From Stenotrophomonas sp. (GTDB lineage: Bacteria > Pseudomonadota > Gammaproteobacteria > Xanthomonadales > Xanthomonadaceae), in NCBI GenBank assembly GCA_049650985.1, contig JBASBF010000020.1, positions 46,711-110,710 of the forward strand: a stretch of DNA of 64,000 nucleotides, written 5' to 3'. The notes beneath the pieces are model-generated. The model made no database searches. It had not been told where the DNA came from and saw only the letters and a list, made by a program, of their open reading frames with translations. The translations under genes and the position numbers were made by a program. Shown here piece after piece: positions 4,797-63,632 of the stretch (position 1 is the stretch's first letter; every line of letters begins with the position of its first letter).

Positions 4797-4947
4797 GAGG
4801 AGCGAGGAGTGAGTGAAGAGGAGTCAGGAGTGAGACAAGGCAATGGCAGAAGCGTCATCATCTCCGCGCAGGCGGAGATCGCTCTTGCTCTCGAATTTTC
4901 TCATTACTCACTCTTCTTCACTCACTCCTCGCTTTTCACTCTCGGCT
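4797..4947. repeat. MITE/REP-like palindromic element, GAGTGAGTGAAG-arm family (copy 2, best exemplar)
   Basis: Terminal inverted arms at 4801-4824 (agcgaggagtgagtgaagaggagt) and 4910-4933 match 23/24 as reverse complements. A central hairpin is atctccgc-gcag-gcggagat (4860-4879). The element fills the MFS/metH intergenic space. Confidence 0.8.
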
Positions 4948-7628
<2,681 letters not shown>

Positions 7629-31384: not shown

Positions 31385-31699
31385 TCAGGCGTGCCCGCCC
31401 AGCGACTGCACCATGCGCCCGCGCAATTCCGCGTCGTTGGTGGCGTGGGGTGGCTGCACTTCGTGCAGCGAGAAGCCGCGCATCAGTGCGTCCTCCTCGT
31501 CCAGGCCTGCGAAGGCGACGAACTCGGCATCGAACAATTGCGCGCGCGCCGTGTCCTCGCTGTCGTAGCTCAGGGTGTTGCCATCGCTGTCGAGTACCTC
31601 AGCCGTACCGGCCGGGCGCACGCGCAAACGGGCCCAGATCAGGGTGGTACCGAGGCTGGCCAGCCACCACTGGTCGGTGTGGGTATCGGAATCGTTCAT
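31385..31699 (-). CDS. hypothetical cytoplasmic protein (104 aa)
   Basis: ORF 31385..31981 trimmed to MNDSDTHTDQWWLASLGTT. Its ATG overlaps the stop of the upstream membrane-protein ORF (ATGA at 31696-31699). No family recognised. Confidence 0.5.
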   Translation of the reverse strand: MNDSDTHTDQWWLASLGTTLIWARLRVRPAGTAEVLDSDGNTLSYDSEDTARAQLFDAEFVAFAGLDEEDALMRGFSLHEVQPPHATNDAELRGRMVQSLGGHA

Positions 31700-46345: not shown

Positions 46346-46430
46346 CCGTCGCTTGAATCGAGCATCGGCGCAGTGCCCCTCCGGGGCTTCCGCGCGCCGG
46401 GCCGGACCGCTACCAGAAGACGGAATCCGA

Positions 46431-49151
<2,721 letters not shown>

Positions 49152-49221: not shown

Positions 49222-50325
49222 TTACGGTTTGTCCTTCTCCTGCCCGGTTCCGGCCTTGCGCCTGGCCAGCAGGTTGGCGGCGGGGTTGTCGGTCACGCTG
49301 CCGGCCTGGAAATAGCCGACCACGCTGGCGACGGAACGGTGGTCCGTCATCGCCATCAAGGCGGGCAGGGCAACACCTTGGCGCGCCCCTTCGGTGACGA
49401 AGCCGGAACGCAGGCTGTGCCCGCCGAAATCCCCGTCCAGTCTGGCCAGCGCCGCGCGGCGCTGCACGATGTCGGCCACCGCCCGCGGCGAGATGCCCGG
49501 GCCGATGGTGTCGCCCCACAGGCGGCGGAAAACGGGGCCTTCCTGCAAACCACTGGCCTCCAGCCATGCGGTGAGCGCATCGGCGGCGACGCCGAGGATC
49601 GGCTTGTCCGGCGTGCCCGTGGCCTTCGGGCCGTCCTGCAATGTCTTGCCGTGTTCCAGACGGTAGAGATAGGCATCCGGGGCGATGCGGCGCAGGTCGG
49701 CCAGATCGGCCGCGGCGACTTCGCTGCGACGGCGTCCGCCGCTGGCGAAGGCGAAGTAGAGCAGGGCGCGGTCACGCAACCCTTCCAGCGTGTCGTCGCA
49801 GGTAGCGATCAGCGCTTCCAGCTCGTTGCCGGTGATAGCGGTCTTCTTGCGCGGGCGTTCGCCGCGCTTGTGGGCCGCGCGGCGGCCCTTGGACAACAGT
49901 TGCCGGACCTCGGGCGTTTCGCAGGGGTTGGGGAGCTTCTTGAGTTGATGGGCGGCCGACAATACGGCGATGCGGTGGATGATGGTGCTGAGCTTGAATG
50001 GTCCGGGACGTTGTTTCAGCCCGGCTGCCACCAGCTTTTCATCCAGCGTTTCCGGCAGTTCCCATGCCAGCCCGGTTTTTGCCTTGCGGGCCAGATGGTC
50101 GACGATGAACTGCACGACCGTGCTTGAATGCATCGGCAACTCGATCGTGCGGCCGTAGCGGCCTTGGTACCACGCGGTCCAGTAACGCAACGCGGTCTGG
50201 TAGCTGCGCGCGGTGTTGATCGAAGCCGCTTCGTCGAAGATTTCCCGTACGGCTTCGGCGGCACTGCTGGCCAGCTGTTCGGGTAGAAGCGCGGAAGGAA
50301 ACAGATCGAGAGCGGCGGATTTCAT
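49222..50325 (-). CDS. tyrosine-type site-specific recombinase/integrase
   Basis: 367-aa ORF with catalytic-motif candidates GGRRRSE (Arg I), GHSLRSG (HxxR) and HRSVASVVGY (His/Tyr). Confidence 0.8.
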   Translation of the reverse strand: MKSAALDLFPSALLPEQLASSAAEAVREIFDEAASINTARSYQTALRYWTAWYQGRYGRTIELPMHSSTVVQFIVDHLARKAKTGLAWELPETLDEKLVAAGLKQRPGPFKLSTIIHRIAVLSAAHQLKKLPNPCETPEVRQLLSKGRRAAHKRGERPRKKTAITGNELEALIATCDDTLEGLRDRALLYFAFASGGRRRSEVAAADLADLRRIAPDAYLYRLEHGKTLQDGPKATGTPDKPILGVAADALTAWLEASGLQEGPVFRRLWGDTIGPGISPRAVADIVQRRAALARLDGDFGGHSLRSGFVTEGARQGVALPALMAMTDHRSVASVVGYFQAGSVTDNPAANLLARRKAGTGQEKDKP

Positions 50326-50464
50326 GCGGATGACAAGATAGAGGTTCGGCAGGGAATCATTACGAACAAGGCCAGATTTGCGCTAAGCCATTGATATTAC
50401 GCAGGCACGTAGGTGGAGACTTAGTCGTCGCTGCTAAAAGTTGACGCCGCGCCTCACAAGGTTC

Positions 50465-50492
50465 TAGGTGGGTGCCTAGCGGCACCCACCTA
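50465..50492. terminator. perfect 12-bp-stem hairpin just downstream of the SulP stop codon
   Basis: taggtgggtgcc-tagc-ggcacccaccta. There is no clear U-tract on the minus (sulP) strand, so its function as a terminator is tentative. Confidence 0.4.
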
Positions 50493-50500
50493 TTTGCCGG

Positions 50501-51979
50501 TCAATGGCCAGACGATAGCGTGGCGCCCGGCGTTCGATGCTTGCCTAAGCGATCGACCAGCGTCTCACTCGCGTCGTTGAGACCATAGACCTCGACAATC
50601 GCGCCATGCTCACGCAGCTTCATTACCACCCGGTCCAGAGCGTCCACGGCGGTCAGATCCCAGAAGTGCGCATCTTTCAGATCGATGATGACGTCCTTGG
50701 GAACATCTAGATAGTTGAAGCTGCTCACGAACTGGCCAGCGGAGGCGAAGAACACCTGTCCCTTGACCACATAGACGCTTGACTCTGCGTCTACCTGGGT
50801 CATCTCGATGGTGAGCATTTTGCCAACCTTCCGGGTGAAGAACACTGCTGACAGGACGACGCCTGTCAGGACGCCCTTGGCCAGGTCGTGTGTAGCCACG
50901 GTGACTATCACGGTGCCAATCATCACCACTGACGAGCTCTTCGGATGGATGGCCAACTCACGCAGCGAGCGCCAGCTAAAGGTGCCGATGCTGACCATGA
51001 TCATCACCGCCACCAATGCTGCCATCGGAATCTGACTCACCAGGCCCGAGCCGTACACCACCAGCAAAAGCAGGACCACGCCGGCGACCAGGCAGGAAAG
51101 CCGGCCCCGGCCACCCGATGTGATATTGATCACCGACTGGCCGATCATGGCGCAGCCAGCCATGCCTCCGAAGAACCCGGTGACGGTGTTGGCTAACCCT
51201 TGGCCTGCACATTCGCGATTCTTCTGGCTCGGCGTCTCGGTCATGTCTTCCACGATCTGCGCCGTCATCAGCGACTCCAGCAGGCCTACCACCGCCAACG
51301 TCGCCGACACCGGCAGCAGAATCTGCAGCGTTTCCCAGGTCAGCGGCACGTTGGGGATCAGAAATACCGGAAGGCTGTCCGGCAGTTCGCCCATGTCGCC
51401 GACGGTGCGCACCTCAAACCCGAAGTACATGGAGGCAGCTGTCAAGACGACGATGGCCACCAAGGGCGAAGGAATCGCCTTGGTCAGCAGCGGCAATAGA
51501 TAGATGATTGCCAAACCCACAGCACAGATCGCGTAGACCGGCCAAGGCATTCCGATCAGCTCGGGTAGCTGTGCAAGGAAGATCAAGATAGCCAGTGCGT
51601 TGACAAAGCCGGTGACCACCGAGCGTGATACAAAGCGCATCAGCGAGCCCAGTCGCATAGCACCGGCAATCATTTGCAGCACGCCTGCCAAGATCGTCGC
51701 CGCGAACAAGTACTGGATGCCATGATCCTTGACCAGGGTGACCATCAACAAGGCCATGGCGCCGGTCGCGGCCGAGATCATGCCAGGGCGACCACCGGCG
51801 ATGGCGGTGATGACTGCGATGCAGAACGAGGCATACAAGCCCACTTTGGGGTCGACGCCGGCGATGATGGAAAACGCGATGGCCTCGGGAATCAGGGCCA
51901 GTGCAACGACGATGCCGGACAGTAAGTCGCCACGGATATTGCCGAGCCATTGCTGGCGCAGGGGATAGATTGCAGACAT
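50501..51979 (-). CDS. SulP family inorganic anion transporter with C-terminal STAS domain
   Basis: ORF 50501..52066 trimmed to [42 protein letters not shown]. It has a multi-TM core and a STAS-like C-terminus ([23 protein letters not shown]). Confidence 0.85.
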
Positions 51980-52246
51980 AGAAAATGATCTCCGCGCACG
52001 GCAGTGCGCGCCAAACGAAGGAAACAGGCACCCTTTCCAGACGTTACTGTCTGGATCGCTCTTCAATCAGGCGTCAGGGTGGAGTCATCGCTGGTGGATC
52101 ATCAGGTTAGAGAATCGATATTGTAAGTCTAGAGCGAAGTGTTGGCGAGCGGAGCAGAGCATAGGAAGGTGTGCGTCTCGCTCATATTTGCTACCGCTAG
52201 CGCCAGGCACGGCATATGATCCCAAGGTGTTACGCCGAGTGAACTG

Positions 52247-52666
52247 TCAGACCACGCGCCTTCCCTCCTGATCGATCACCACCTCACCATCTTCCTTGGT
52301 AAACGGCCTGTCCACCGCTGGAAGGATGTCGAGTACGACTTCTGATGGCCGGCAAAGACGGATACCCGCCTCCGTTTGCACGAATGGGCGATTGATCAGT
52401 ATCGGGTGCGCTAGCATGGCATCGAGCAAGGCATCGTCGCTGAGTGCGGCATCGCCCAGCCCCAGCTCGTCATGCGGCGTGCCCTTCTGCCGGATCGCAT
52501 CACGCACCTTCAAGCCAGCTCCGGAAATCAGCTCGATAAGACGCACTCGGCTAGGCGGGTTGGTCAGGTAATCAATCACCTCGGGCTCAATCCCGGCGTG
52601 TCGAATCAAGGCGAGAGTGTTCCGCGAGGTGCCGCACTTCGGATTGTGGTAAATGACAGCGTTCAT
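52247..52666 (-). CDS. arsC: arsenate reductase, glutaredoxin-coupled ArsC type
   Basis: [34 protein letters not shown] matches the R773-type ArsC catalytic Cys motif (CGTSRN). Confidence 0.85.
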
Positions 52667-53403
52667 GCGCTTTCCTCTTGGTTCAACGCGGCTTCCAGCA
52701 CGCCTGCGGCGGCTGCCAGCGCCGCCGCTTCAACAGCGCCCTTGCGCTCGCTGTAGCGATCCACCAGGTAGTCGCTGCGCCCGCGCACCAGCAGAGTGAA
52801 CTTGACCAGTTCCTCCATCACGTCCACCACCCGATCGTAGTACGCCGATGGCTTCATACGCCCGTCGTCATCGAACTCCTGCCAGGCTTTGGCGACCGAC
52901 GATTGGTTGGGGATCGTCACCATCCGCATCCAGCGGCCGAGCACGCGCAGCGTGTTGACCACGTTGAAGGACTGCGAGCCGCCGCAGACCTGCATCACTG
53001 CCAGCGTGCGGCCTTGGGTGGGTCGAACGCTGCCTTCTTCCAGCGGCAGCCAGTCGATCTGGTTCTTGAATACAGCGGTAAGGGTGCCGTGGCGTTCGGG
53101 GCTGACCCACACGTGGCCTTCGGACCACAGTGAGGCCTGGCGCAGCTCCTGAACCTTGGGGTGGGTAGCTGGCACCGAGTCCAGCATCGGCAGCTCATGC
53201 GGGTCGAACAAGCGGGTTTCCGCTCCGAGCTGTTCCAGTAGCCGCTGCGCCTCCAGCGCCAGCTTGCGGCTGAACGACTGCGGGCGCAGCGACCCGTACA
53301 AGATCAGGATGCGCGGGCGATGCTGCTGCTCGCCCGGATCACTGAGCTTGGCGGCCGTAGGAATGTCCAAGGCGCCCGGAACCACGTTGGGAATCTGCTG
53401 CAT
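52663..53403 (-). CDS. arsH: arsenical resistance protein ArsH (NADPH-dependent FMN reductase)
   Basis: ORF 52663..53655 trimmed to [15 protein letters not shown] (246 aa). It has [19 protein letters not shown] and the ArsH family pattern. Its stop overlaps the arsC ATG (ATGA). Confidence 0.85.
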
Positions 53404-53443
53404 GGGGGTTGTCCTGCCAATTCGATTCGAATATTCTAGAATC
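53404..53443. promoter_or_regulatory. 40-bp divergent arsH / arsR control region with AT-rich near-palindrome
   Basis: gggggttgtcctgccAATTCGATTCGAATATTCTAGAATc. The palindromic core GAATATTC is at 53429-53436. Confidence 0.45.
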
Positions 53444-53758
53444 ATGGAACATAAAAACGCAACCCACGCTCTTGCTGCCCTGGGCCATGCCACCCGCCTG
53501 TCGATCTTCCGCCTGCTGGTGCAGGCCGGCAGCGGCGGCAAGCTGGCCGGCGACATCGCCCAAGCGCTCGCCTTGCCTGGCGCCACACTTTCCTTCCATC
53601 TGAAGGAACTGCTGGCTGCCGGCCTGATCAGCGCCGAGCAACGTGGCCGGACCATCTGCTACCGGGCCGAGTTTGTGGCGATGAACGAGCTGCTGGCCTA
53701 CCTCACCGAAAACTGCTGTGCCGACGAACAGTCCTGCGAACGCCCCGCTGGCTGCTGA
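53444..53758 (+). CDS. arsR: ArsR/SmtB family regulator with C-terminal CC-x5-C motif
   Basis: ORF 53156..53758 trimmed to [26 protein letters not shown]. It has a wHTH ([23 protein letters not shown]) and a C-terminal [16 protein letters not shown]. There is no CVC motif in the DNA-binding helix. Confidence 0.85.
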
Positions 53759-53784
53759 CCAACCCTACCTTAGAGATCGCTCAA

Positions 53785-54276
53785 ATGACCCGTCGCGTCT
53801 TGTTCTTGTGTACCGGTAATTCCGCTCGGAGCGTGTTGGCCGAATCGACCCTGAAAAAATGGGGCGAAGGCCGCTACGAGTCCTTCAGCGCGGGCAGCCA
53901 ACCAGCCGGTCGTGTCAACCCGTTCGCGATCGCCCAGCTGCAGCGCGAGGGCTTCCCGGTGGACGGCCTGCGCAGCAAGTCGTGGGACGAGTTCGCCGAA
54001 GCTGATGCCGCCCCGATGGATCTGATCGTCACCGTCTGCGACAGCGCGGCGGCCGAGGCTTGCCCGGTGGTGTTTGGCGACTTTGTGCGGGTGCATTGGG
54101 GCCTGTTCGATCCGGCCGGTGTTGAAGGCTCGGACGAACAGAAGGCCGAAGCCTTCGATCGCGCGCATCAGATCATCAAGGCGCGCCTGAAGGCTTTCCT
54201 CGACATCCCCGACAACGCATGGGACGACCGCGACGCGCTCAAGGCCCAGCTCGAGCCGATCGCGCAGATCAACTGA
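53785..54276 (+). CDS. arsC: arsenate reductase, LMW-PTP (thioredoxin-coupled) ArsC type
   Basis: The CX5R P-loop ([11 protein letters not shown]) and LMW phosphatase fold are followed by acr3 and trxB. Confidence 0.85.
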
Positions 54277-54296
54277 CCGTCTTTCCGGAAAATGCC

Positions 54297-55355
54297 ATGA
54301 CCACTGATACCTCCCGCCTGTCCTTCCTGGACCGGTACCTCACGCTCTGGATCTTCGCCGCCATGGCGCTGGGCGTCGGCCTGGGGGCGTTGTTCGAGGG
54401 CGCGCCCAGCGCGTTGAACAGCCTCTCCATAGGGTCGACCAACATCCCGATCGCAATCGGCCTGATCCTGATGATGTATCCGCCGCTGGCCAAGGTGAAG
54501 TACGAAGAACTGCCGCGGGTTTTCGCTGACAAGCGCGTGTTGATGCTCTCGCTGCTGCAGAACTGGATCATCGGCCCGTTCCTGATGTTCGGCCTGGCCG
54601 TGCTGTTCCTGCGCGACTACCCCGAATACATGACCGGCCTGATCCTGATCGGGCTGGCCCGCTGCATCGCGATGGTGCTGGTGTGGAACCAACTCGCCCG
54701 TGGCGACGCCCAGTATGTTGCTGGACTGGTGGCATTCAACTCGATCTTCCAGATCGCGCTGTTCAGCCTCTACGCGTGGTTCTTCCTGTCTTGGTTGCCG
54801 CCGGTGTTCGGTCTGCAGGGCAGCGTCATCGATGTTAGTTTCTGGACCATCGCCGAGGCTGTTCTGATCTACCTTGGCATCCCGTTCCTGGCCGGTTTCC
54901 TCACCAGTCGATGGCTGAAGGCGCGTAAGGGTGTGCGCTGGTATGAAGAGAAATTCCTGCCTGCAATCAGTCCGATAACCCTTGCCGCATTGCTGTTTAC
55001 TATCGTGGCGATGTTCAGTCTGAAGGGCGGCGACGTGCTGCGAATTCCGATGGACGCAGTACGCATCGCGATTCCGCTGACGCTGTACTTCATCATCCAG
55101 TTCGTCATCAGCTTCTTCATGGGCAAGCTGATCGCCAAAGACTACCCCCGCACCACCGCGATCGCGTTCACTGCAGCAGGCAACAACTTCGAACTGGCGA
55201 TCGCCGTGGCCATCGCGGCTTTCGGCCTGGCCTCGCCGGTCGCATTCGCCGCTGTCATCGGCCCACTCGTGGAAGTGCCGGTGCTGATCCTGCTGGTCCA
55301 CGTCGCCTTGCGGCTGGGCAAACGCTACTTTCCTGCCGATGCACGGAGCCGCTGA
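54297..55355 (+). CDS. acr3: ACR3 family arsenite efflux transporter
   Basis: ORF 54219..55355 trimmed to [30 protein letters not shown]. It is a 10-TM ACR3-type protein. Confidence 0.9.
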
Positions 55356-56342
<987 letters not shown>

Positions 56343-56366
56343 GTGCTGCAGCGCGAGGAAGTCCAG

Positions 56367-57437
56367 ATGGACAGCATCGATGTGGTGGTAATTGGAGGCG
56401 GTCAGGCCGGGCTGGCGGCCGGTTACTTCCTGCGTCGCAGCGGGCTGTCCTATGTGATTCTTGATGCCGAAACGTCTCCTGGCGGGGCGTGGCAGCATGC
56501 GTGGGAATCCTTGCATCTGTTCTCGCCGGCGGGCTGGAGCTCGATTCCCGGTTGGCCGATGCCTGCCACTCGGGAACCGTACCCGTCGCAGGCGGAAGTA
56601 CTGGACTACCTCGCGTGCTACGAGCACAAATATGCGCTGCCGGTCATCCGTCCCGTGCAGGTGGAACGCATCAGCCGTTCGGGGAAACGGCTGCTGGTGG
56701 AAGCAGATGACGGCCGACAGTGGCACACACGCGCAGTGATTAGCGCCACAGGTACCTGGCGGCGTCCCTACACGCCCGGCTATGAAGGTTTGGACGCATT
56801 CGGCGGTGTGCAGCTGCACTCGGCCCACTACAGCCATCCCGAACCCTTCGCCGGAACGCGCGTGGCCATCATCGGTGGCGGCAACTCAGGCGCACAGATT
56901 CTGGCCGAGGTATCCAAGGTGGCCGAGACCACCTGGATCACCCAGCGGGAGCCAGCCTTTCTCGCCGACGATGTGGACGGGCGCGTTCTATTCGCACGCG
57001 CAACCGAGAAGTGGAGGGCTCAGCAGGAAGGACGCGAGCCGGATGTTCCAGAGGGTGGTTTTGGCGACATCGTCATGGTGCCGCCGGTGGTGGACGCACG
57101 GCGCCGCGGTGTACTGGTTTCCATGACGCCACCCGTCCGTTTCACCGCCACCGGCATGCAGTGGGCAGATGGCAGCGAACGCAACTTCGACGCGGTGATC
57201 TGGTGCACCGGCTTCCGGCCGGCCTTGTCGCACCTGGAAGGACTGGGTCTGGTCAACGCCCAAGGTCGGATCGACGTGGATGACACCAAGGTTCGTTCGA
57301 TCGCAGAGCCATCGGTCTGGCTGCTGGGCTATGGCGACTGGAATGGTGCCGCGTCAGCCACGCTGATCGGCGTGACCCGTTATGCGCGGGAGGTAGTGAG
57401 ACAAGTTACAGCCTGTTGCGCAGCTGCGTGTGGCTAG
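56367..57437 (+). CDS. arsO: ArsO-like flavin-dependent monooxygenase
   Basis: ORF 56343..57437. The start is placed at ATG 56367, after a gaggaag RBS. It has two dinucleotide-binding motifs ([12 protein letters not shown]; [12 protein letters not shown]) in an ars-cluster context. Confidence 0.7.
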
Positions 57438-57476
57438 TCGGCAAAGAACATCCGCTGGGGTGCCAGTATCCCAACA

Positions 57477-57505
57477 AAGTCCCGCTCTGGCGGGACTTTT
57501 GCTTT
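57477..57505 (+). terminator. rho-independent terminator after arsO
   Basis: aagtcccgc-tctg-gcgggactt followed by ttgcttt. Confidence 0.65.
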
Positions 57506-57538
57506 GGAGGCCTCTTGAATCGTCATCTGAATAGCCAC

Positions 57539-57556
57539 CTGTCATCAGGTTGTCAT
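57539..57556 (+). promoter_or_regulatory. candidate Pho box (PhoB binding site)
   Basis: CTGTCAT-cagg-TTGTCAT. Two 7-bp direct repeats with a 4-bp spacer match the CTGTCAT-N4-CTGTCAY architecture. The site is 70 nt upstream of the arsR2 ATG. Confidence 0.55.
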
Positions 57557-57581
57557 ACAGAAGGGGGAGCATCTCAATCTG

Positions 57582-57608
57582 TCGACATATCTCGACATAT
57601 CGACATAT
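57582..57608 (+). promoter_or_regulatory. triple direct repeat (T)CGACATAT x3 (candidate operator / -10 overlap)
   Basis: TCGACATAT-c-TCGACATAT-CGACATAT. It lies between the Pho box and the RBS (gggaga) of arsR2. Confidence 0.45.
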
Positions 57609-57625
57609 GCAACGGGAGAATCTCC

Positions 57626-58060
57626 ATGGCCCAACCCCAACGTGTTCTGGACTTCGATTACTTCGAGCGACGCTCCTTGAGCGCGTCGATGTCCATCGAC
57701 CACGCATTGGATGCCCTTTCGGCACTCAGCAATGGGGCGCGCCTGGTGATTTTCCGCACGCTGGTGAACCACGAGCCGGAAGGCCTCACGGCCGGAGTCC
57801 TGACCGACATGATGGGGATGCGCCACAACACGCTTTCCAACCACTTAGCAGTGCTTAGTCGCGGCGGGTTGATCTGCGGAACCCGCGAAGGGCGGTTCGT
57901 GCGCTACCGCGCCTGCCTGGACGGAATGCATGGGCTGTTGGGATTCCTGCTCGACGACTGCTGCGGCGGACGGTCTGAGCTGTGCCTTCAGCCGCACCCG
58001 ACCGATCCTGCCTGCGACTGTGTGGCGGAGGTGCCGGCTCCGCCCAGACTTTTCAAATAG
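57626..58060 (+). CDS. arsR: ArsR/SmtB family regulator with C-terminal Cys cluster (second copy)
   Basis: ORF 57416..58060 trimmed to MAQPQRVLDFDYFERR. It has a wHTH (LTAGVLTDMMGMRHNTLSNHLAVL) and a C-terminal DDCCGGRSELC...CDC. Confidence 0.75.
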   Translation: MAQPQRVLDFDYFERRSLSASMSIDHALDALSALSNGARLVIFRTLVNHEPEGLTAGVLTDMMGMRHNTLSNHLAVLSRGGLICGTREGRFVRYRACLDGMHGLLGFLLDDCCGGRSELCLQPHPTDPACDCVAEVPAPPRLFK

Positions 58061-58138
58061 TCCTGCCCCATCCAGCTGGGGAGCTCGGTGGGCAAATACC
58101 AATAGCACCCAAGAACATCCGAACATAGGAGATTCTCA

Positions 58139-59191
58139 ATGTATCTGCGTCTCACCCTTCTTGCGGCAGCCACGCTCTCCATCGTCGCGTGCTCGCCCTC
58201 CAATACGCCGGCCGCTTCGGAGCAGAACGGCAATTCCGCGGCGGGCAAAACAGCCGAGATCAGCGGCATGGTGAGCACGGACGGTTCGTCGACCGTGTTT
58301 CCCGTCACCGAAGCGATGGCCGAAGAGTTCCAGAAAGAAAATGCCGGCATCAACGTAACGGTCGGCATGTCAGGAACCGGTGGCGGCTTCAAGAAGTTCT
58401 GTCGCGGTGAAACCGACATCTCCAATGCGTCGCGCCCGATCAAGGGTGAGGAGAAGGAAGCCTGCAAGGCCGCTGGCGTGGAGTACATCGAGCTTCCAGT
58501 CGCGATAGACGCTTTGACAGTCGTGGTCAACCCACAGAACACCTGGGCCAATGACCTCACCGTCGACGAACTGAAGGCCATGTGGGTGCCTGAAGCACAG
58601 GGCAAGATCACCAACTGGAACCAGATTCGTCCGAGCTTCCCGGACAAGCCGCTGGTCCTCTACGGTGCAGGTACCGATTCGGGAACCTACGACTATTTCA
58701 CCGCCGCCATCGTTGGCAAGGAGCACTCCAGTCGCGGCGATTACACGGCCTCCGAGGACGACAACGTGCTGGTGCAGGGAGTCTCGGGTGATGCCAATGC
58801 ACTGGGGTTCTTCGGTTTGGCCTATTACGAAGAAAACGCCGACAAGCTCAAGGCAGTAGGCATCAAGACCAACGCCGCCGCCCAGGCGGTCGCGCCCAGC
58901 GTCGAAACCGCGCGCTCCGGCCAGTATCAGCCTCTGTCGCGCCCGATCTTCATCTACGTAAGCAAGAAGGCCGCCGAAACCAAGCCCGAAGTCGCGCGCT
59001 TTGTCGAGTTCTATCTGGACTCCAAGCACTCCGAAGGATTGGTGCAGGAGGTGGGCTATGTACCGCTGCCGGAGAACGCATTGGCCGCAATGCGCGAGCG
59101 CTTTGCAAAGCGGGAGATTGGCACCGGCTTCACTGGCTCGAAGATTGGCGTTTCCATCGACGAGCTGCTGAAAGAGAAGCTGGTTTACTGA
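58139..59191 (+). CDS. pstS: phosphate ABC transporter substrate-binding lipoprotein PstS family
   Basis: Lipobox LSIVAC, plus [17 protein letters not shown] and GTGGGFKKF motifs of the PBP-like-2 PstS group. An aggaga RBS precedes the start. Confidence 0.85.
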
Positions 59192-59241
59192 CAATCATGG
59201 TCGGCGCGCACAGCGATGTGCGCGCTGGCTGAGGCCGTCTG

Positions 59242-60186
59242 ATGAAAAGTAGTGGTTCCTTCCTCGATGTGGGTCCTGTCCCGCTTCAGCCAAGCGACGC
59301 ATTTCTGCGCCGCCGCCATGCCATCGACACAGGCATTCGCCTGGTACTGTTCGTCGCAGCGGCGCTATCAGTTCTGGTCACCTTCGGCATCCTCTACGTC
59401 CTACTCAGTGAGAGCTTGAAGTTCTTCACTCAGGTGTCCATCGTGGACTTCCTGACCGATACGCAGTGGACGCCCGTCTTCGAAGAGAAGCACTTCGGGA
59501 TCATGACACTACTGTCGGGTACGCTGATGACCACGGCCATTGCCTTGGTTGTTGCCGTGCCTGCCGGCACGATTCTCGCGTTGTATCTCAGCGAGTTCGC
59601 CAAGCCCAGACTCCGCGAAGTGGTAAAGCCGTTCCTCGAGCTCATTGCAGGCGTACCAACGGTCGCTTTTGGGTACTTCGCTCTGCTGTTCTTGACGCCC
59701 ATCTTTCAATCCTTCATCCCGGGTCTGGCACGCTTCAACCTGCTCGTGTCTGGGGTGGTCATCGGCATCATGATCTTGCCCTACATCGTATCCATGAGCG
59801 AAGACGCTATGCGCGCCGTGCCTGATTCGCTGCGTGAGGGGGCATACGCACTCGGATTCACCCGCCTTCAGACCGGATTGAAGGTGGTGACGCCAGCTGC
59901 GCTCTCGGGCGTCACCGCCGCTTACCTGCTCGGAATGTCGCGCGCGGTCGGCGAGACTATGGTAGTGGCTATCGCTGCCGGCCAGCAGGCCAGGATAGCG
60001 ACCAATCCGCTCGAGGGTGCAGCAACTATCACCTCATACATCGTGCAGTTGAGCATGGGCGATCTTCCACATGAGTCGATTGCCTATCAGACCATCTTCG
60101 CCGCCGGACTGACGCTTTTCGCACTTACGTTCAGTTTCAACCTCTTCGCCTTCTGGCTCCGCAAGCGCTACCGGGAGGCCTACTGA
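59242..60186 (+). CDS. pstC: phosphate ABC transporter permease PstC
   Basis: 314-aa, 6-TM permease with an EAA-like loop (MSEDAMRAVPDSLREGAYALG). It is the first permease of the set. Confidence 0.85.
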   Translation: MKSSGSFLDVGPVPLQPSDAFLRRRHAIDTGIRLVLFVAAALSVLVTFGILYVLLSESLKFFTQVSIVDFLTDTQWTPVFEEKHFGIMTLLSGTLMTTAIALVVAVPAGTILALYLSEFAKPRLREVVKPFLELIAGVPTVAFGYFALLFLTPIFQSFIPGLARFNLLVSGVVIGIMILPYIVSMSEDAMRAVPDSLREGAYALGFTRLQTGLKVVTPAALSGVTAAYLLGMSRAVGETMVVAIAAGQQARIATNPLEGAATITSYIVQLSMGDLPHESIAYQTIFAAGLTLFALTFSFNLFAFWLRKRYREAY

Positions 60187-61115
60187 TGCGCGACCACATC
60201 GAGCCCATGGGCCTTGACGATGCTGCAATTACACGGCGCGCACGAGTTTCAGACTTGTGCTTCACCGTGCTCGGGCTGCTGGTACTGTTCCTGACCCTGA
60301 CCATTCTGATGGCGCTTGTAGCCGACTTCGTAGTCGACGGCGCGGCCAGACTCACTCCAGACTTTTTCACCAACTTCCCCTCTCGCCGACCTGAGTCGGC
60401 CGGTATTCTCTCGGCTTGGATCGGTACTTGCCTTGTCATGCTGGTGACCGGGGTCCTTGCCGTGCCGGTGGGGGTCGCCGCAGGCGTCTATCTTGAGGAA
60501 TACGCCCCGAAGCACTGGGTCACCGACTTTATTGAGGTCAATGTCACCAACCTTGCTGGCGTTCCTTCGATCATTTTCGGACTGCTGGCACTGGGCCTCT
60601 TCGTCCAAATGTTCGGGCTCGGCCAAACGATCCTGGTCGCGGGCATGACGCTTGCTCTGCTGATCCTGCCCATCATCATTGTCGCGACCCGCGAGTCACT
60701 GCGCGCCATTCCTCAAGACATCCGCGAGGCTGCTTTCGGGCTGGGGGCAGATCAGTGGCAGACCGTCAGCATCTTTCTACTTCCCGCCGCGCGTCCGGGA
60801 ATCCTGACTGGCGCCATCGTGGGCATGTCGCGGGCCATTGGCGAAACCGCGCCGATCATCACCATCGGCGCACTGACCTTCATTGCCTTCCTGCCGCCAT
60901 CACCAATCCAGGCATCTGCTCCCTTCATCAGTTTTGAATGGCTCAGCTCCCCCTTCACCGTGATGCCCATCCAGATGTTCAACTGGGTGTCGCGACCGCA
61001 GGCTGGCTTTCACGTGAATGCAGCTGCCGCCGGGCTGGTGCTGCTGGGTATGACCCTGCTGATGAACGGCTTTGCAATCTGGCTGCGTTACCGCCTTCGC
61101 CGCCGCCTGCGGTGA
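60186..61115 (+). CDS. pstA: phosphate ABC transporter permease PstA
   Basis: 309-aa permease with [22 protein letters not shown]. Its start overlaps the pstC stop. Confidence 0.85.
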
Positions 61116-61129
61116 TCCACGGAGACAAC

Positions 61130-61957
61130 ATGAATCACTCGACCATCTCAATTCCGGTTCCCGTGGCCGAACGCACCTCAACCCCCGCGCACGATGCGAC
61201 GGTGCGTGCTGAGGTTCGTGGGCTTGACTTCCATTACGACAAGTTCCACGCGCTGAAGGACATCAACCTGTCGATCGGCAGCAATCAGGTCACTGCGCTG
61301 ATCGGCCCCTCGGGCTGCGGCAAAAGTACGCTACTGCGCTGCTTCAACCGGATGCATGACCTGTATCCGAACAACCGGTACTCCGGCGCGATCACCCTCA
61401 TGCCGGAGAACCTGAATATCGTAGGGCCGGATGTGGACCCGATGCGCGTGAGGCTGCGCATTGGCATGGTTTTTCAGAAGCCAAATCCGTTCCCGAAATC
61501 GATCTTTGACAACGTGGCCTCAGGGATCATGATTCGCGGTGTGCGCAACAAATCAGTTGTCACTGAGCATGTCGAACGCGCATTGCGCGGAGCGGCCCTC
61601 TGGGATGAGGTGAAGGACAGGCTGGGTAAGTCAGCATTCGAGTTGTCCGGCGGTCAGCAGCAGCGTCTGTGCATAGCCAGGGCGCTGGCGCCCAACCCCG
61701 AGATCATTCTCTTTGATGAACCCACATCTGCACTCGATCCCATTGCAACTGCGCGGATTGAAGAGCTGATCGACGAGTTGCGTGCGCAGTACACCATCGT
61801 CATTGTTACCCACAACATGCAGCAGGCTGCGCGGATCTCGGACAGGACGGCATTCATGCACATGGGACAGCTCATTGAGAGTGGCCCTACGGCGGAGTTT
61901 TTTACTAATCCGAAAGAGCAGAAGACCCACGAGTACATCACCGGCCGTTTCGGCTGA
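61130..61957 (+). CDS. pstB: phosphate ABC transporter ATP-binding protein PstB
   Basis: ORF 60938..61957 trimmed to [11 protein letters not shown]. It has Walker [10 protein letters not shown], signature LSGGQQQR and Walker [12 protein letters not shown]. Confidence 0.9.
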
Positions 61958-61969
61958 GGAGCAAAGGTC

Positions 61970-62695
61970 ATGACCGACCATATTGTCCAGTCTTTCGATG
62001 TCGAGCTGCGGGGGCTTACTTCACACATCCTTGAGCTCGGCATCCTTGCCGAACAGCAGCTTACGGATGCCGTCTGGTCGCTACGGCGTGGCAACGAGCA
62101 AATGGCCAAGGAAGTGGCAGAGCGTGAGGAGCGACTGAACCGGCTTGCGGCGCAGATTGATAGCGACGCTGTGAGCATGATCGCGCGTAGACAGCCGCTA
62201 GCGATCGACCTTCGCCATGTGATGGCAGCAATCCGAATTAGTTCAAACCTGGAGCGCGTGGGCGATCTTGCTTACAACATTGCCAAACGCTCGATGGCAA
62301 TGAGCGAGGCTCCGATACCAGCAGAGCTTGCGGAGCCTATGCAGCGTATGGCCGAGCTCACGCTATTGCAGCTGAAATCAGCGCGGGAGTCCTTTGCCAC
62401 GATGGACATTCATTCGGCTTACCGCGTTTGGGAGGAAGATGCAGTAATTGACGCGATGCACACGATCTTGTTCAAGGATATCGTGCAGTGCATGGCCGAC
62501 GACCGCGCCTCCGCATTTGACTTGGCTCACCTGCTGTTCGTAGTGAAGAACATCGAGCGGGTTGGTGACCACGCAACCAACATAGCCGAGGACGTCGTAT
62601 ACATGGTCAGCGGGGCGTTACCTATCGGCAAGCGCCCGAAGATGGATGAGAGCACCCTGCCTAGGGCGGGAAGTGACAACCTAGGCAACAGCTAA
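61970..62695 (+). CDS. phoU: phosphate signaling complex protein PhoU
   Basis: 241-aa ORF with two PhoU repeats (NLERVGDLAYNIA; NIERVGDHATNIA). Confidence 0.9.
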   Translation: MTDHIVQSFDVELRGLTSHILELGILAEQQLTDAVWSLRRGNEQMAKEVAEREERLNRLAAQIDSDAVSMIARRQPLAIDLRHVMAAIRISSNLERVGDLAYNIAKRSMAMSEAPIPAELAEPMQRMAELTLLQLKSARESFATMDIHSAYRVWEEDAVIDAMHTILFKDIVQCMADDRASAFDLAHLLFVVKNIERVGDHATNIAEDVVYMVSGALPIGKRPKMDESTLPRAGSDNLGNS

Positions 62696-62899
62696 TAAAC
62701 CCACTATCCCCGCATAGTGGCCGCTGCGCCCAATGGCGACGAGGTCGGAGGGGCGTTTTGTAACGACGGGACTACTTCCTTTCAGGGTATAGAGGCTCTG
62801 CGTGCTTTGATGCTTTGGGCGGATTGGGTATGCTTGCGCCATGAGCCACATCTGCCAGCTCGACCACCGAATACCGGCGTGATCGCATTGATCGATCAC

Positions 62900-63002
62900 G
62901 CCCCTGTTGCTCATGTTGGTCAGAGCGCCGGCCTTATACTCCGGTGAGAGCACGCGCCAGATAAGCGCGTACACGTCGGTTCGATTCCGACCGGGGGCAC
63001 CA
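62900..63002 (+). tRNA. atypical 103-nt tRNA-like gene (Ile-like scaffold, UAU anticodon loop plus a second anticodon-type arm)
   Basis: The acceptor pairs GCCCCTG (62900-06) with CGGGGGC (62992-98), followed by A73 and CCA. U8 is present. The D arm is GCTC-ATGTTGGTCA-GAGC with A14, G18G19 and A21. Arm 1 is CCGGC-CTTATAC-TCCGG (one C/T mismatch, anticodon TAT at 62935-37). Arm 2 is ACGCGC-CAGATAA-GCGCGT (62952-70). The T arm is GTCGG-TTCGATT-CCGAC. The length and double arm are non-canonical. Confidence 0.55.
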
Positions 63003-63005
63003 CCG

Positions 63006-63632
63006 TCAACGGCAGAAGAACGCTTCTACTTGCGCGCCATGGCAGCGCTTGTACTTGCTGCCGCTGCCACACAGGCACGGCGTATGCTCGCGCAGTCCCG
63101 CACCGAGTGATTGGCCCAAAAAATCCCTAGCGTGCAGAAGGGGCTGGATTTCATGGGCGGGAACGCTCACCTCTCCATATTGGGATGCTCGCTCGCCGCG
63201 GTTCATCACCCGGACTATCGCTTCAGACATCTGGATGAAGTGCTTGATCAGCAGGTCATCGCGTAACGGCATGCGGACGTTGTCGATGGCCAGGCCCTCG
63301 TAGCGTCTGCGCGGATCCGGCACAAAGAGAATGCGTGTCTCACCTTCAGGCTTTGGCGTGATGTCGACCATTTCACCCTCGGGGCTGACCCACACGGCAT
63401 GGAATTCTGCCTCCACCAGCACGTGCGACCATTCCCACAGCTGCCAACCGCACCGCATCTGGCCGCCGTCCCGCGTGATCTTCGCTTGCACGTTGGGAAA
63501 GCACTCATGCACGATCGCATCGGCTTCCGGCTGCACAGGCAGATAGACGGGCTCTGCGCCGCGCACGACGGAATCGGTCAGGCGCCGCACGGCGCGGGTG
63601 ATCTCCGGGGGTGTGGTGGTTACTACGCTCAT
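63006..63632 (-). CDS. SEC-C metal-binding motif protein of unknown function
   Basis: 208-aa ORF with C-terminal CLCGSGSKYKRCHG (SEC-C motif). Its stop codon is 3 nt from the tRNA-like CCA end, in convergent orientation. Confidence 0.6.
   Translation of the reverse strand: MSVVTTTPPEITRAVRRLTDSVVRGAEPVYLPVQPEADAIVHECFPNVQAKITRDGGQMRCGWQLWEWSHVLVEAEFHAVWVSPEGEMVDITPKPEGETRILFVPDPRRRYEGLAIDNVRMPLRDDLLIKHFIQMSEAIVRVMNRGERASQYGEVSVPAHEIQPLLHARDFLGQSLGAGLREHTPCLCGSGSKYKRCHGAQVEAFFCR

Follow-up and report, generated by a model that had tools for sequence, protein, structure and literature searches.

A two-armed UAU tRNA gene in a Stenotrophomonas mobile region, most likely decoding AUA and matured under the control of its own mini-ORF leader

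The window, a 64,000-nt stretch of a Stenotrophomonas sp. contig, carries near its 3′ end a tRNA gene with two tandem anticodon-type hairpins between the D and T arms, preceded on the same strand by a mini-ORF, a short hairpin and a putative promoter (Table 1). A first-pass annotation had described the gene as a tRNA with two such arms, and both parts of this description hold. The Rfam tRNA covariance model (RF00005) matches the native sequence at 62900-62999 (+) with 47.2 bits against a gathering score of 29, untruncated over model positions 1-71, and no other Rfam family matched the window. The RNAfold minimum-energy structure of 62900-63002 is a five-arm cloverleaf (-42.4 kcal/mol, z = -2.1), and the two-arm plan recurs with covariation across phyla, as detailed below. 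In the RF00005 alignment, arm 1 takes the place of the anticodon arm, with its C31/U39 mismatch flagged, and a 27-nt insertion falls in the variable region, which is 30 nt long and contains a 6-bp hairpin; short-form relatives reach 59 bits against the same model. As had been predicted, either of two 25-nt deletions leaves a normal layout: with 62928-62952 removed in silico, ARAGORN calls a clean 78-nt tRNA of type Ile(gat), and with 62945-62969 removed a clean 78-nt Ile(tat). On the native sequence, the program makes a mis-call, Ile(gat) at 62930-63002. The encoded CCA, A73 and the 7-bp hairpin GTGATCG-CATTGAT-CGATCAC are likewise present where the annotation had put them. Its appeal to a tRNA-Ile-like body (C4:G69, U12:A23, A73) fares less well: U12:A23 and A73 are there, but position 4:69 varies freely across the family alignment, and the body is weak evidence of Ile identity. 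G29:C41 stands in place of C29:G41. Arm 2 is longest in the window form, whose D loop is also unusually long.

Table 1. Features of the tRNA locus, in window coordinates
Feature	Position	Strand	Basis or remark
Weak sigma-70-like promoter (putative)	62807-62834	+	sequence reading
-35-like TTGATG	62807-62812	+	followed by 16-nt spacer
-10-like TATGCT	62829-62834	+	ends 6 nt before ATG
Mini-ORF ATG AGC CAC ATC TGC CAG CTC GAC CAC CGA ATA CCG GCG TGA = MSHICQLDHRIPA*	62841-62882	+	
Anti-tRNA leader segment	62851-62878	+	predicted to pair with tRNA 62900-62924 (acceptor 5′ strand, D arm)
Sensor codon pair CGA-AUA (candidate)	62868-62873	+	the tRNA that follows has the anticodon for this AUA (62871-62873)
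7-bp hairpin GTGATCG/CGATCAC	62879-62899	+	abuts tRNA +1; 5′ arm holds ORF stop codon 62880-62882
tRNA, 103 nt, encoded CCA	62900-63002	+	Rfam RF00005, five-arm minimum-energy fold, family covariation
Acceptor stem	62900-62906 / 62992-62998	+	
D arm	62909-62926	+	
Arm 1, decoding anticodon arm CCGGC-CUUAUAC-UCCGG	62928-62944	+	RF00005 alignment; ARAGORN on deletion form
Arm-1 loop CUUAUAC	62933-62939	+	
Arm-1 anticodon UAU	62935-62937	+	with U33, A37, C31/U39 mismatch
Arm 2, anticodon-like ACGCGC-CAGAUAA-GCGCGU	62952-62970	+	followed by 4-nt tail ACAC
Arm-2 GAU	62960-62962	+	
T arm	62975-62991	+	
A73	62999	+	
Encoded CCA	63000-63002	+	

The gene had been placed at an island boundary, a position that the surroundings do not bear out: the low-GC mobile region continues past the tRNA into SEC-C, KfrA_N and OLD-TOPRIM/UvrD genes, and the integrase (49222-50325) adjoins gyrA at the other island end, far from the tRNA. 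The same tRNA occurs on 47 Xanthomonas plasmids, the closest copies with the adjoining SEC-C gene; X. euvesicatoria 85-10 has copies on pXCV183 (31579-31676) and pXCV19 (4307-4406). The window gene is cargo inside a plasmid/ICE-derived module. We rejected an att site, as the 3′ end of the tRNA does not recur as a direct repeat at the island's other end, and a linkage to SEC-C, this neighbor being common only to the closest plasmid copies. Diverged copies lie in unrelated contexts (DotA/TraY, MobQ, a Y-family polymerase, avrBs3), and the flanking ORFs of 15 diverse loci hold no shared protein partner, bar rtcB in some. The ATA codons reported in neighboring island genes at 58505, 59995 and 62315 are in frame, in pstS, pstC and phoU, and the comparison of island and core that had been suggested shows ATA to be 2.7-fold more frequent in 49.2-64 kb than in the core (2.49 vs 0.91 per 1000 codons; 11 vs 13 codons, Fisher p = 0.015).

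Relatives of the gene show that the double-arm form is conserved across genomes, plasmids and phages. We found the architecture in ~94 distinct genes across many bacterial phyla, together with 81 metagenome and 38 phage sequences; counted as loci, the family comprises 106 genome, 119 metagenome and 88 viral occurrences. The hosts of the genome loci include Xanthomonadales, Nevskiales, Cellvibrionales, Alpha- and Zetaproteobacteria, Acidithiobacillus, Nitrospirota, Planctomycetota, Verrucomicrobiota and others, and the phage copies include phages of Stenotrophomonas and Acinetobacter; no copy was found in the E. coli genomes searched. Near-identical intact copies are present in Stenotrophomonas, Xanthomonas, Pseudoxanthomonas, Aerolutibacter and Lysobacter genomes and in one Thiobacillus MAG, and the window sequence itself is identical in 10 independent assemblies. 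In the family alignment, 95.2% of cells are paired and 17 of the 25 pairs change on both sides, giving a covariation score of 0.511 vs 0.132 in shuffles (reached by 0/500) and 0.08-0.13 when the structure is slid along the alignment. Every helix that varies (acceptor, anticodon, arm 2 and T) shows compensatory changes, only the D stem being invariant, and these changes support both the 7-bp acceptor and the 5-bp T stem. The two-arm structure is thus conserved with covariation across phyla, far beyond chance. Two arms are the ancestral state of the family, and the window gene is an intact member of this widespread bacterial, plasmid and phage family of UAU-anticodon tRNAs with two hairpins between the D and T arms. 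This kind of tRNA is apparently undescribed, no paper on the two-arm family or its leader having been found in the literature searched, and its members fall into a systematic annotation gap, with ARAGORN missing or mis-calling 25 of 83.

Searches with two independent patterns show that UAU in arm 1 and GAU in the arm-2 loop each predict the other. When the pattern left arm 1 out, UAU was found in arm 1 of 76/76 parsable sequences; when it left arm 2 out, GAU was found in the arm-2 loop of 83/94 genome and 38/45 viral sequences, counting only 7-nt loops with GAU at their center and a closing stem of 3 bp or more. This invariance, together with the conserved AUA of the upstream leader, upholds the earlier assignment of UAU, which reads AUA, as the operative anticodon. 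Arm 2 is also predicted independently by RNAalifold, and each of its three core pairs shows compensatory changes. Its 7-nt loop has the consensus C-N-G-A-U-H-A and shares 6/7 positions with the loop of the anticodon arm in the major tRNA-Ile(GAU), but lacks U33; because loop position 6 varies (A/U/C) and the preceding G is invariant, the conserved triplet is GAU and not AUH. In most members, the arm-2 stem has only 3-4 bp and the tail that follows is 4-7 nt, reading GCAGGUY in most of them. Removal of arm 2 leaves a normal tRNA layout in 83/83 family members, and removal of arm 1 in 63/83. The 31:39 mismatch was considered as a family trait and rejected, as many members have G31-C39 or G31-U39.

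Arm 1 has the full set of features (Y32, U33, UAU, A37) of an anticodon arm used for decoding and would read AUA on the ribosome, and we consider it very probable that the locus is a functional AUA-reading tRNA of the two-arm family. Arm 2 might be a recognition handle, probably for IleRS, given that ordinary bacterial IleRS charges a UAU-anticodon tRNA poorly. The identity set of this enzyme includes the anticodon and t6A37 (PMC9976931), and the preference of E. coli-type IleRS (Trp905) for LAU over UAU is ~100-fold greater than that of Mycoplasma mobile IleRS (PMC3575796). This is the least certain step of our model, a tentative suggestion that may well prove wrong, and several observations speak against it: the tip of a variable arm lies far from the site where IleRS normally reads the anticodon; arm 2 of the window stacks 6-8 layers and not 5, and therefore could be no simple replacement of an anticodon arm; and the variation at loop position 6 is unlike A37 of true tRNA-Ile. 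The idea that arm 2 mimics an AUA codon and pairs with the anticodon was ranked below the IleRS handle and kept as a lesser candidate, given that the conserved triplet of its loop is GAU.

Upstream of the tRNA, an ORF leading from ATG to an in-frame ATA is present in 66 of 85 cellular and plasmid members, vs 8.5 +/- 2.7 in dinucleotide shuffles, and in 60 of the 85 the ATA is preceded by CGA (52), CTC (5) or CGC (3), where 0.6 would be expected by chance. The ATGs lying 12-48 nt upstream of the ATA split 68 / 2 / 10 over frames 0 / +1 / +2 and are most frequent at 30 nt, the spacing is fixed at 9-12 codons, and the leader peptides end (F/H/L)-R-I-(P/S/C). An SD-like motif precedes the leader ATG in 1/66 members, and 29/66 have a TANNNT hexamer 5-8 nt in front of it. 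The putative promoter of the window agrees with the consensus at 8/12 positions and was not called by our scan, whose cut-off is 9. Given the short distance from its -10-like element to the ATG (Table 1), the mRNA would be leaderless, and this probably holds for the mini-ORF mRNA in general, if transcription starts and the leader is translated as the sequence suggests. In Xanthomonas, 14% of mRNAs are leaderless and no SD consensus is seen, in a dRNA-seq study that discarded tRNA reads (PMC3300014). The leader motif TTCGAATAYCC is similar to a T loop and might be a relic in place of selected codons; we rejected an origin from a tRNA 3′ half, as no T stem flanks the motif and the frame bias of the ATGs favors translation. 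Only 4/44 phage copies and 21/78 metagenome copies have the leader, which implies that the tRNA can also work from a locus lacking the mini-ORF.

The leader is predicted to pair with the tRNA. In the minimum-energy fold of 62841-63002, 19 leader:tRNA pairs form, among them those that join 62876-62878 to 62900-62902 and the AUA codon to 62905-62907, and the hairpin that abuts the tRNA is the tip capping this predicted helix and not a separate feature; other lineages have a hairpin of different sequence in the same place. Folded alone, the tRNA keeps its acceptor stem in 59/61 family members, whereas free transcripts with the leader lose it in 60/61, against 53% on average of the folds with a shuffled leader (intact in 47%), so that shuffled leaders also break the acceptor about half the time, in a program (RNAfold) that ignores tRNA tertiary contacts and modifications. 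Leader:tRNA pairs average 12.0 vs 4.2 with shuffled leaders, and the acceptor is disrupted in 15/15 leader clusters vs 7.3 expected. Masking a ribosome footprint at the AUA (A-15 to A+12) restores the acceptor stem in 45/61 members and fails to restore the cloverleaf in 16/61, mostly alphaproteobacterial members with a longer leader. In the window, the locked and the cloverleaf folds are isoenergetic (-58.7 kcal/mol), and a ribosome placed in silico anywhere from codon 5 to the stop frees the acceptor; AUA specificity would thus rest on dwell time only.

Based on these data, we propose the following model for the cellular and plasmid copies. The tRNA would be transcribed together with its own 10-14-codon ORF, which lacks a Shine-Dalgarno sequence, probably lies at the transcript 5′ end and contains the putatively slow codon pair CGA-AUA. 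With no ribosome on the leader, the leader would pair with the first ~25 nt of the tRNA, and a precursor deprived of its acceptor stem would stay unfolded and uncleaved by RNase P. A ribosome dwelling on the AUA would hide the anti-tRNA segment as synthesis of the remaining tRNA proceeds, allowing the cloverleaf to fold and the tRNA to mature; when AUA is decoded fast, the ribosome would terminate three codons later and the leader would lock the tRNA again. The cell would thereby be supplied on demand, and in a self-limiting way, with a tRNA that is of use for foreign genes containing AUA and risky in excess because its U34 can misread AUG; UAU indeed reads AUG on E. coli ribosomes (PMC3575796). 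The predicted folds favor leader gating of the tRNA with moderate confidence, stalling and processing control being the presumed steps, and we hold the joint claim, a functional AUA-reading two-arm tRNA with leader-gated expression, about as firmly. The locus is most likely an AUA-decoding tRNA whose maturation would be gated by AUA-dependent ribosome stalling.

The explanation that competes best, although we consider it improbable, is that a plain supplementary tRNA-Ile(UAU), with a purely structural long variable arm and an untranslated ORF, gives the mobile element more AUA decoding, the CGAATA motif being a promoter element, a processing element or a T-loop relic. It would agree with the plain tRNA-Ile-TAT label that GenBank annotators give such genes, with the leaderless phage copies in tRNA arrays, with the normal-length UAU tRNAs common in phages (at least 120 loci), with the 2.7-fold ATA enrichment of the island and with the likeness of the leader motif to GGTTCGAATCC. 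A neutral variable arm, however, would not hold G-A-U invariant across phyla while its stem covaries, and neither a promoter element nor a relic, which moreover lacks a flanking T stem, would be expected to give the observed ATG frames (68 / 2 / 10), the fixed codon spacing and the near-absence of SD motifs, nor does it account for the destruction of the acceptor stem in silico by 60/61 leaders.

More doubtful still is a main role outside translation, either as an attachment site or relic, or as a decoy or replacement against host anticodon nucleases, arm 2 then being a bait that mimics the tRNA-Ile(GAU) anticodon loop. The enrichment of the family on plasmids, ICE-like islands and phages, 3′-only gene fragments on 15 Xanthomonas plasmids (H53-H67, L013), the defense-type genes nearby in the source chromosome (OLD-TOPRIM and UvrD) and the presence of rtcB, an RNA repair ligase gene, within a few kb at 11 loci would all suit such a role. 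Against it, no integrase is adjacent and the tRNA 3′ end is not repeated at the other island end, arm 1 keeps its decoding features in full, the CCA is encoded, and the conserved leader AUA points to decoding capacity as the sensed variable; furthermore, we know of no anticodon nuclease specific for tRNA-Ile.

A recoding or mistranslating role, in which the extra arm would make the tRNA a substrate of class-II type for LeuRS or SerRS and AUA would be read as Leu or Ser, seems to us very unlikely. Parallels are found in the nematode nev-tRNA-Ile(UAU), which has a variable arm and is leucylated (PMC3333845, PMC4300185), and in the bacterial allo-tRNAs, among whose predominant anticodons is UAU (PMC5389517), and the discriminator A73 is that of tRNA-Leu. 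Nevertheless, the 4-bp D arm is of class-I type, the short arm-2 stem of most members is followed by a tail that ends AGGUY like a class-I variable loop, unlike Leu, Ser and Tyr tRNAs, the acceptor/T branch is 7/5 and not 8/4 or 9/3, and recognition by LeuRS or SerRS leaves the invariant Ile anticodon GAU unexplained. Finally, the alternative raised by the first-pass annotation, a normal tRNA that decayed after a lineage-specific 25-nt insertion or duplication, is barely credible, even if a close relative (L014, 91% identical) is clearly decaying, with D stem and T loop mutated and no Rfam match, and the window form has its long arm 2 and D loop, for it is already contradicted by the two-arm plan being the ancestral, conserved family state with compensatory changes in arm 2, by every helix being intact at 47 bits, by the identical sequence in 10 assemblies and by near-identical intact copies across several genera.

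Among sense codons, AUA alone is read in nearly all bacteria only via an essential lysidine modification (TilS). If our preferred reading, an AUA-decoding tRNA gated by its leader, is correct, ribosome-mediated attenuation would gain tRNA folding and maturation as a new output. A fuller version, speculative and in our estimate rather unlikely, is a "two-headed" tRNA, which would present its GAU arm (without U33) to IleRS for charging and its UAU arm to the ribosome for AUA, coupled to a cis-regulator of a new class: a probably leaderless mini-ORF with the tRNA's own codon would, through ribosome stalling, gate how the tRNA folds and is matured by RNase P, and the gene would measure the demand for itself. 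Should this hold, mobile elements and phages could supply AUA decoding in any host, with no need of TilS or of a change in the host IleRS, and a fifth functional arm would be added to the tRNA repertoire. Charging of UAU tRNAs and avoidance of AUG misreading have been studied in a handful of species only; here both problems would be solved within the RNA, recognition by an anticodon-loop mimic and dosage by a self-sensing leader, across a large and phylogenetically diverse family that spans plant-pathogen plasmids, Stenotrophomonas islands and phages. Such a tRNA would also be of interest for codon reassignment and heterologous expression, as an AUA-decoding module that is portable and independent of the host.

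Among known systems, the tRNAIle2(UAU) of Mycoplasma mobile, and likewise those of Bifidobacterium, Neorickettsia and Lactobacillus, share UAU and A37 with the two-arm family as well as AUA reading independent of TilS and lysidine. The hosts of the two-arm family presumably keep tilS, as Xanthomonas and Stenotrophomonas do. The window gene has the anticodon features of the M. mobile type (UAU, U33 and A37 in the loop CUUAUAC), and both types face the same problems of U34 recognition by IleRS and of AUG misreading (PMC3575796). The M. mobile-type tRNAs, however, are ordinary class-I molecules with a four-arm cloverleaf and a variable loop of 4-5 nt, as opposed to 30 nt here, and the problems are solved there by an altered IleRS (Trp to Arg/Lys) and an altered ribosome, whereas the two-arm family has an extra GAU-loop arm in the tRNA and a putative sensing leader.

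Nematode nev-tRNA(UAU) and allo-tRNA(UAU) have, like the family, the anticodon UAU and an additional arm that separates the anticodon arm from the T arm (PMC3333845, PMC5389517). The nev-tRNAs are eukaryotic, class-II-shaped and leucylated, unlike the two-arm family with its class-I D arm and AGGUY tail, and the allo-tRNAs have 12-bp acceptor/T branches (8/4 or 9/3) and serine identity. Class-II tRNAs (Leu/Ser/Tyr) have 0-2 nt between the variable arm and the T stem, compared with 4-7 nt in the family, and the window gene differs from them in its UAU anticodon, 4-bp D stem and ACAC tail. Intron-containing tRNAs (group I, >200 nt; archaeal bulge-helix-bulge) do not match either: the extra segment of the family is a simple hairpin of 17-25 nt that lies outside the anticodon loop. 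Archaeal LeuRS, a class Ia enzyme closely related to IleRS, reads the tip bases of the variable arm with a mobile C-terminal domain, reportedly as seen in the Pyrococcus horikoshii LeuRS-tRNALeu structure of Fukunaga and Yokoyama (2005), and is a precedent for arm 2 as an identity element, although the arm-2 bases here copy an anticodon loop; to our knowledge, there is no evidence of any IleRS reading a variable-arm tip.

For the leader, the closest parallels are the attenuators of amino-acid operons such as trpL, hisL, ilvL and pheL, which likewise have a very short ORF carrying the sensed codons and in which the position of the ribosome picks between mutually exclusive RNA folds, as is predicted here. 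Unlike these attenuators, the locus has no intrinsic terminator that we could find on the + strand in 62650-63150, and the hairpin upstream of the tRNA runs directly into it with no U tract. Moreover, the proposed regulator has a single sensor codon on a probably leaderless mRNA, and its product is a tRNA and not a biosynthetic mRNA. The alternative fold would sequester the acceptor strand of this tRNA, making folding and RNase P processing the output, and what is sensed would be the capacity to decode a codon, rather than the amino-acid supply to which trpL-type attenuators respond.

The two-armed tRNA is recognized by the Rfam tRNA model RF00005 at 62900-62999 on the plus strand, with 47.2 bits (gathering score 29). 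The anticodon arm in this match is CCGGC-CUUAUAC-UCCGG, with anticodon UAU and C/U at 31:39, and the 27 nt left over as a variable-region insertion fold into a second hairpin, ACGCGC-CAGAUAA-GCGCGU (RNAfold). The five-arm cloverleaf is the minimum-energy structure of 62900-63002, and CCA is encoded. These results bear out the first-pass annotation, which had proposed a tRNA-like gene with two anticodon-type arms. ARAGORN mis-called the native sequence, and each of the two 25-nt deletions suggested in that annotation gave a clean 78-nt tRNA, Ile(gat) or Ile(tat); its 7-bp hairpin at 62879-62899 and its three in-frame ATA codons are likewise present. The window locus passed the tRNA membership tests. 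It did not pass those for an intron-bearing tRNA, a class-II Leu/Ser/Tyr tRNA or a class-I tRNA-Ile(UAU), nor those for an allo-tRNA, the acceptor/T branch being 7/5 and not 8/4.

By 2013, tRNA-Ile(UAU) genes had been listed for only some nine species of bacteria (PMC3575796). We scanned one genome per species for a D arm, a UAU loop and a T loop with 16-45 nt between, leaving the second arm unspecified, and obtained 106 loci representing 94 distinct sequences. The hosts include Xanthomonadales, Nevskiales, Microbulbifer, Marinobacter, Cellvibrio, many Alphaproteobacteria, Zetaproteobacteria, Acidithiobacillus, Nitrospirota, Planctomycetota/Phycisphaerae, Verrucomicrobiota, Poribacteria and a Firmicutes group; no copy was found in the E. 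coli genomes searched. In 83/94 sequences a stem of 3 bp or more closes a 7-nt loop with GAU at its centre, the loop consensus being C/U, N (mostly A), G, A, U, H, A. Of the 11 exceptions, ten are Firmicutes-type sequences that have a different loop, such as CUGACAA, and the other is L088, a locus with a GAU loop on a closing helix of less than 3 bp. The converse metagenome scan, anchored on arm 2 and the T loop only, returned 81 distinct sequences, with UAU in arm 1 in all 76 that could be parsed. On viral contigs the anticodon-anchored pattern found 45 distinct sequences, 38 with the GAU arm, and many viral copies lie within phage tRNA arrays. The cultured Stenotrophomonas phage DLP_6 and Acinetobacter phage qsb1 carry the gene, annotated there, as family genes are in databases, merely as tRNA-Ile-TAT.

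Base pairs of the five-helix structure were counted in an alignment of 47 diverse members. Paired cells amounted to 95.2%, both sides had changed at 17/25 pairs, and the covariation score was 0.511, compared with 0.132 in shuffles (0/500 as high) and 0.08-0.13 for slid partners. Arm 2 shows compensatory variants at each of three core pairs and was predicted independently by RNAalifold. Arm 1 comes directly after position 26, and after arm 2 stands AGGUY or ACGAU, which corresponds to a variable loop of class-I type with 5 nt; both placements are those of an anticodon arm. ARAGORN called Ile(tat) in 83/83 members upon deletion of arm 2 and Ile(gat) in 63/83 upon deletion of arm 1. Given this placement and these calls, the initial description of two tandem anticodon-type arms therefore holds for the whole family.

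Between the two arms, some lineages carry an additional small hairpin, their third, with a GNRA loop (GCAA or GAAA) or a UUCG-type loop, giving six-arm tRNAs of 104-112 nt (Nevskiales loci L023, L065, L054, L064 and L086; Phycisphaerae loci L016, L042, L052, L114 and L119; also L043, L081, L104, L026, L093 and L098). Firmicutes-type UAU tRNAs, from Lachnospiraceae, Ruminococcus, Eubacterium and other Clostridia/Bacillota (L041, L047, L055, L057, L060, L063, L083, L097, L101, L113, L028) and from viruses (L282, L288, L291, L293, L294, L326), also have a variable region of 17-20 nt, with loop CUGACAA, CUAACAA, CUAGCAA or GCGAAAGC and not NGAUHA; they usually lack an encoded CCA and a leader, and often directly follow another tRNA. 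At 11 loci the two-armed tRNA has a gene for an RtcB-type RNA ligase no more than a few kb away (L095 1067-2275, L118 2504-3712, L189, L134, L137, L153, L158, L159, L192, L202, L209; 54-100% identity to the L095 protein), and in L095 and L118, from Rhodospirillales and Micavibrio MAGs, the rtcB stop codon precedes the leader ATG by 4-5 nt. One Kiloniellaceae contig (L091) bears two leader-plus-tRNA units, at 4835-4917 and 6358-6442, 1.5 kb apart and slightly different in arm 1 and linker.

When the upstream regions were aligned, CGAATA proved to be conserved some 25-30 nt 5′ of the tRNA, with an ATG roughly another 30 nt upstream; in codons, this gives a putative mini-ORF that reads C-terminally (F/H/L)-R-I-(P/S/C). 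An ORF from ATG to an in-frame ATA occurs in 66/85 members of the genome set, compared with 8.5 ± 2.7 in dinucleotide shuffles, and the codon before ATA is CGA, CTC or CGC in 60 members (0.6 expected). ATGs located 12-48 nt upstream of ATA fall in frames 0, +1 and +2 in 68, 2 and 10 cases, with a peak at 30 nt. An SD-like motif accompanies 1/66 leader ORFs, and a TANNNT hexamer lies 5-8 nt upstream of the ATG in 29/66. Taken together, these statistics are consistent with a leaderless, translated mini-ORF. In Xanthomonas, leaderless mRNAs are numerous and an SD consensus is absent (PMC3300014). The candidate promoter in the window, TTGATG-N16-TATGCT-N6-ATG, matches only 8/12 consensus positions and was not called by the scan tool. 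The leader is mostly absent from phage copies (present in 4/44) and occurs in 21/78 metagenome copies. Since the leader motif TTYCGAATAYCC (window 62865-62876 and family leaders) is one inserted base from the T-loop sequence GGTTCGAATCC, there are hints that the anti-tRNA leader may derive from a duplicated tRNA 3′ half.

We folded the whole transcript, from ATG to CCA, for 61 members. The acceptor stem was completely lost in 60/61 of these predictions and kept in 59/61 tRNAs folded alone; with shuffled leaders it stayed intact in 47% of folds. It returned in 45/61 members when the footprint of a ribosome at the AUA (A-15 to A+12) was masked. When leaders were clustered at 60% identity, the acceptor was disrupted in 15/15 clusters (7.3 expected), and pairs between leader and tRNA 5′ end averaged 12.0, compared with 4.2 for shuffled leaders. 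Across lineages, the segment right after AUA covaries with the tRNA 5′ end: acceptors of the GGGG type face YCCCC, and those of the GCCC type face GGC or GGGU. For the window, leader 62851-62878 is predicted to pair with tRNA 62900-62924; the first three tRNA nucleotides take part as GGC:GCC, U6-G7-U8 pair with the AUA codon, and the 62879-62899 hairpin caps this helix. The predicted energy is the same, -58.7 kcal/mol, for this locked fold and for the cloverleaf.

Based on these predictions, we propose a leader-gated mechanism, which we consider reasonably probable. The transcript would be locked by default, the leader helix forming before the 3′ acceptor strand is transcribed; a ribosome stalled on CGA-AUA would cover the anti-tRNA strand until the cloverleaf forms and RNase P cuts, and quick AUA decoding would lead to termination three codons later and re-locking, resulting in negative feedback on AUA-decoding capacity. 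Such gating would make biological sense because the UAU anticodon reads AUG besides AUA on E. coli ribosomes (PMC3575796) and few codons here are ATA (0.9 per 1000 for the core and 2.5 per 1000 for the island). Because every ribosome position, codon 5 through the stop codon, releases the window acceptor in silico, AUA specificity would come from dwell time and co-transcriptional timing.

The arm-2 loop copies C32, G34, A35, U36, (A37) and A38 of tRNA-Ile(GAU), without reproducing U33. Because of this mimicry, and because UAU is poorly charged by Trp905-type IleRS (PMC3575796) and the major Ile identity elements include the anticodon and position 37 (PMC9976931), the simplest reading is that arm 2 serves as a surrogate IleRS handle, which we regard as possible rather than probable. 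Two points are no more than suggestive: GAU is lacking in Firmicutes-type members, and the IleRSs of B. subtilis and lactobacillus are reported to have Arg at the position reading the wobble base (PMC3575796). One possible geometry is an alternative conformer with arm 2 stacked on the D stem. Archaeal LeuRS reads the tip of the tRNA variable arm, and arm 2 could, by analogy, be read in that fashion.

Features at and around the two-armed tRNA (window coordinates)
Feature	Position	Strand	Remarks
gyrA	46353-49151		borders the lower-GC block
Tyrosine recombinase	49222-50325	-	first gene of the lower-GC block, beside gyrA
SulP transporter	within 49222-62695		island cargo
ars cluster	within 49222-62695		island cargo, arsenic resistance: ArsH-like flavoprotein, ArsR, ACR3, thioredoxin reductase, flavin monooxygenase
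pstSCAB-phoU, second set	58139-62695		followed by the two-armed tRNA
Leader mini-ORF (predicted)	62841-62882	+	ATG...CGA ATA CCG GCG TGA = MSHICQLDHRIPA*
Two-armed tRNA	62900-63002	+	
SEC-C-motif protein	63006-63632	-	after the tRNA; SEC-C zinc motif C-terminal

Past gyrA, GC falls in the island block (61.0% versus 66.0%). The SEC-C protein is the same in ten assemblies, including chromosome CP014274.1, and there the block runs on into KfrA_N and an OLD-TOPRIM/UvrD pair. The tRNA, initially placed at the island boundary, is thus interior, as cargo inside a mobile region; a repeat of its 3′ end was looked for at the opposite island end and not found. On CP014274.1 (L001 1975-4630, just past the window end), the OLD-family TOPRIM/AAA ATPase gene (526 aa) overlaps that of the UvrD-like helicase (365 aa), a Gabija-like defence gene pair that adjoins the KfrA_N protein and is separated from the tRNA by about 1.4 kb. 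A 39-nt repeat (72% identity; 52204-52242 and 63072-63110) lies at or just beyond the 3′ ends of minus-strand island ORFs 52247-52666 and 63006-63632, and gyrA contains a perfect 21-nt tandem duplication at 47084-47125 (CACCGCCGGCATCATCAACGG twice), giving an in-frame protein repeat.

BLAST placed the two-armed tRNA on 47 Xanthomonas plasmids, in four forms: the long form as in the window (97-99% identity); a full-length but mutated, decaying copy on CFBP498_p224 (L014; 91%, no Rfam match); a short form on pXCV183 and pXCV19 (74-76%, 59 bits), which ARAGORN calls Ile(tat); and 3′-only fragments on 15 plasmids. Relative to the window, the short form has compensatory changes in the acceptor, anticodon and T stems and retains the string GCGCCAGAUAAGCG despite them. 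The fragments (hits H53-H67 and L013) comprise the 3′ ~80 nt from the anticodon stem onward, at 85% identity, and what lies 5′ of them is unrelated; the pB07007 fragment (L013 4001-4080) lies about 400 bp upstream of an avrBs3 TAL-effector gene.

Searches of the openly accessible full-text literature turned up no description of UAU tRNAs from bacteria that bear a GAU-loop arm, and none of a tRNA gated by a leader ORF. As proposed, the locus would share its logic with leader-peptide attenuators, but it has no terminator and its output would be a different one.
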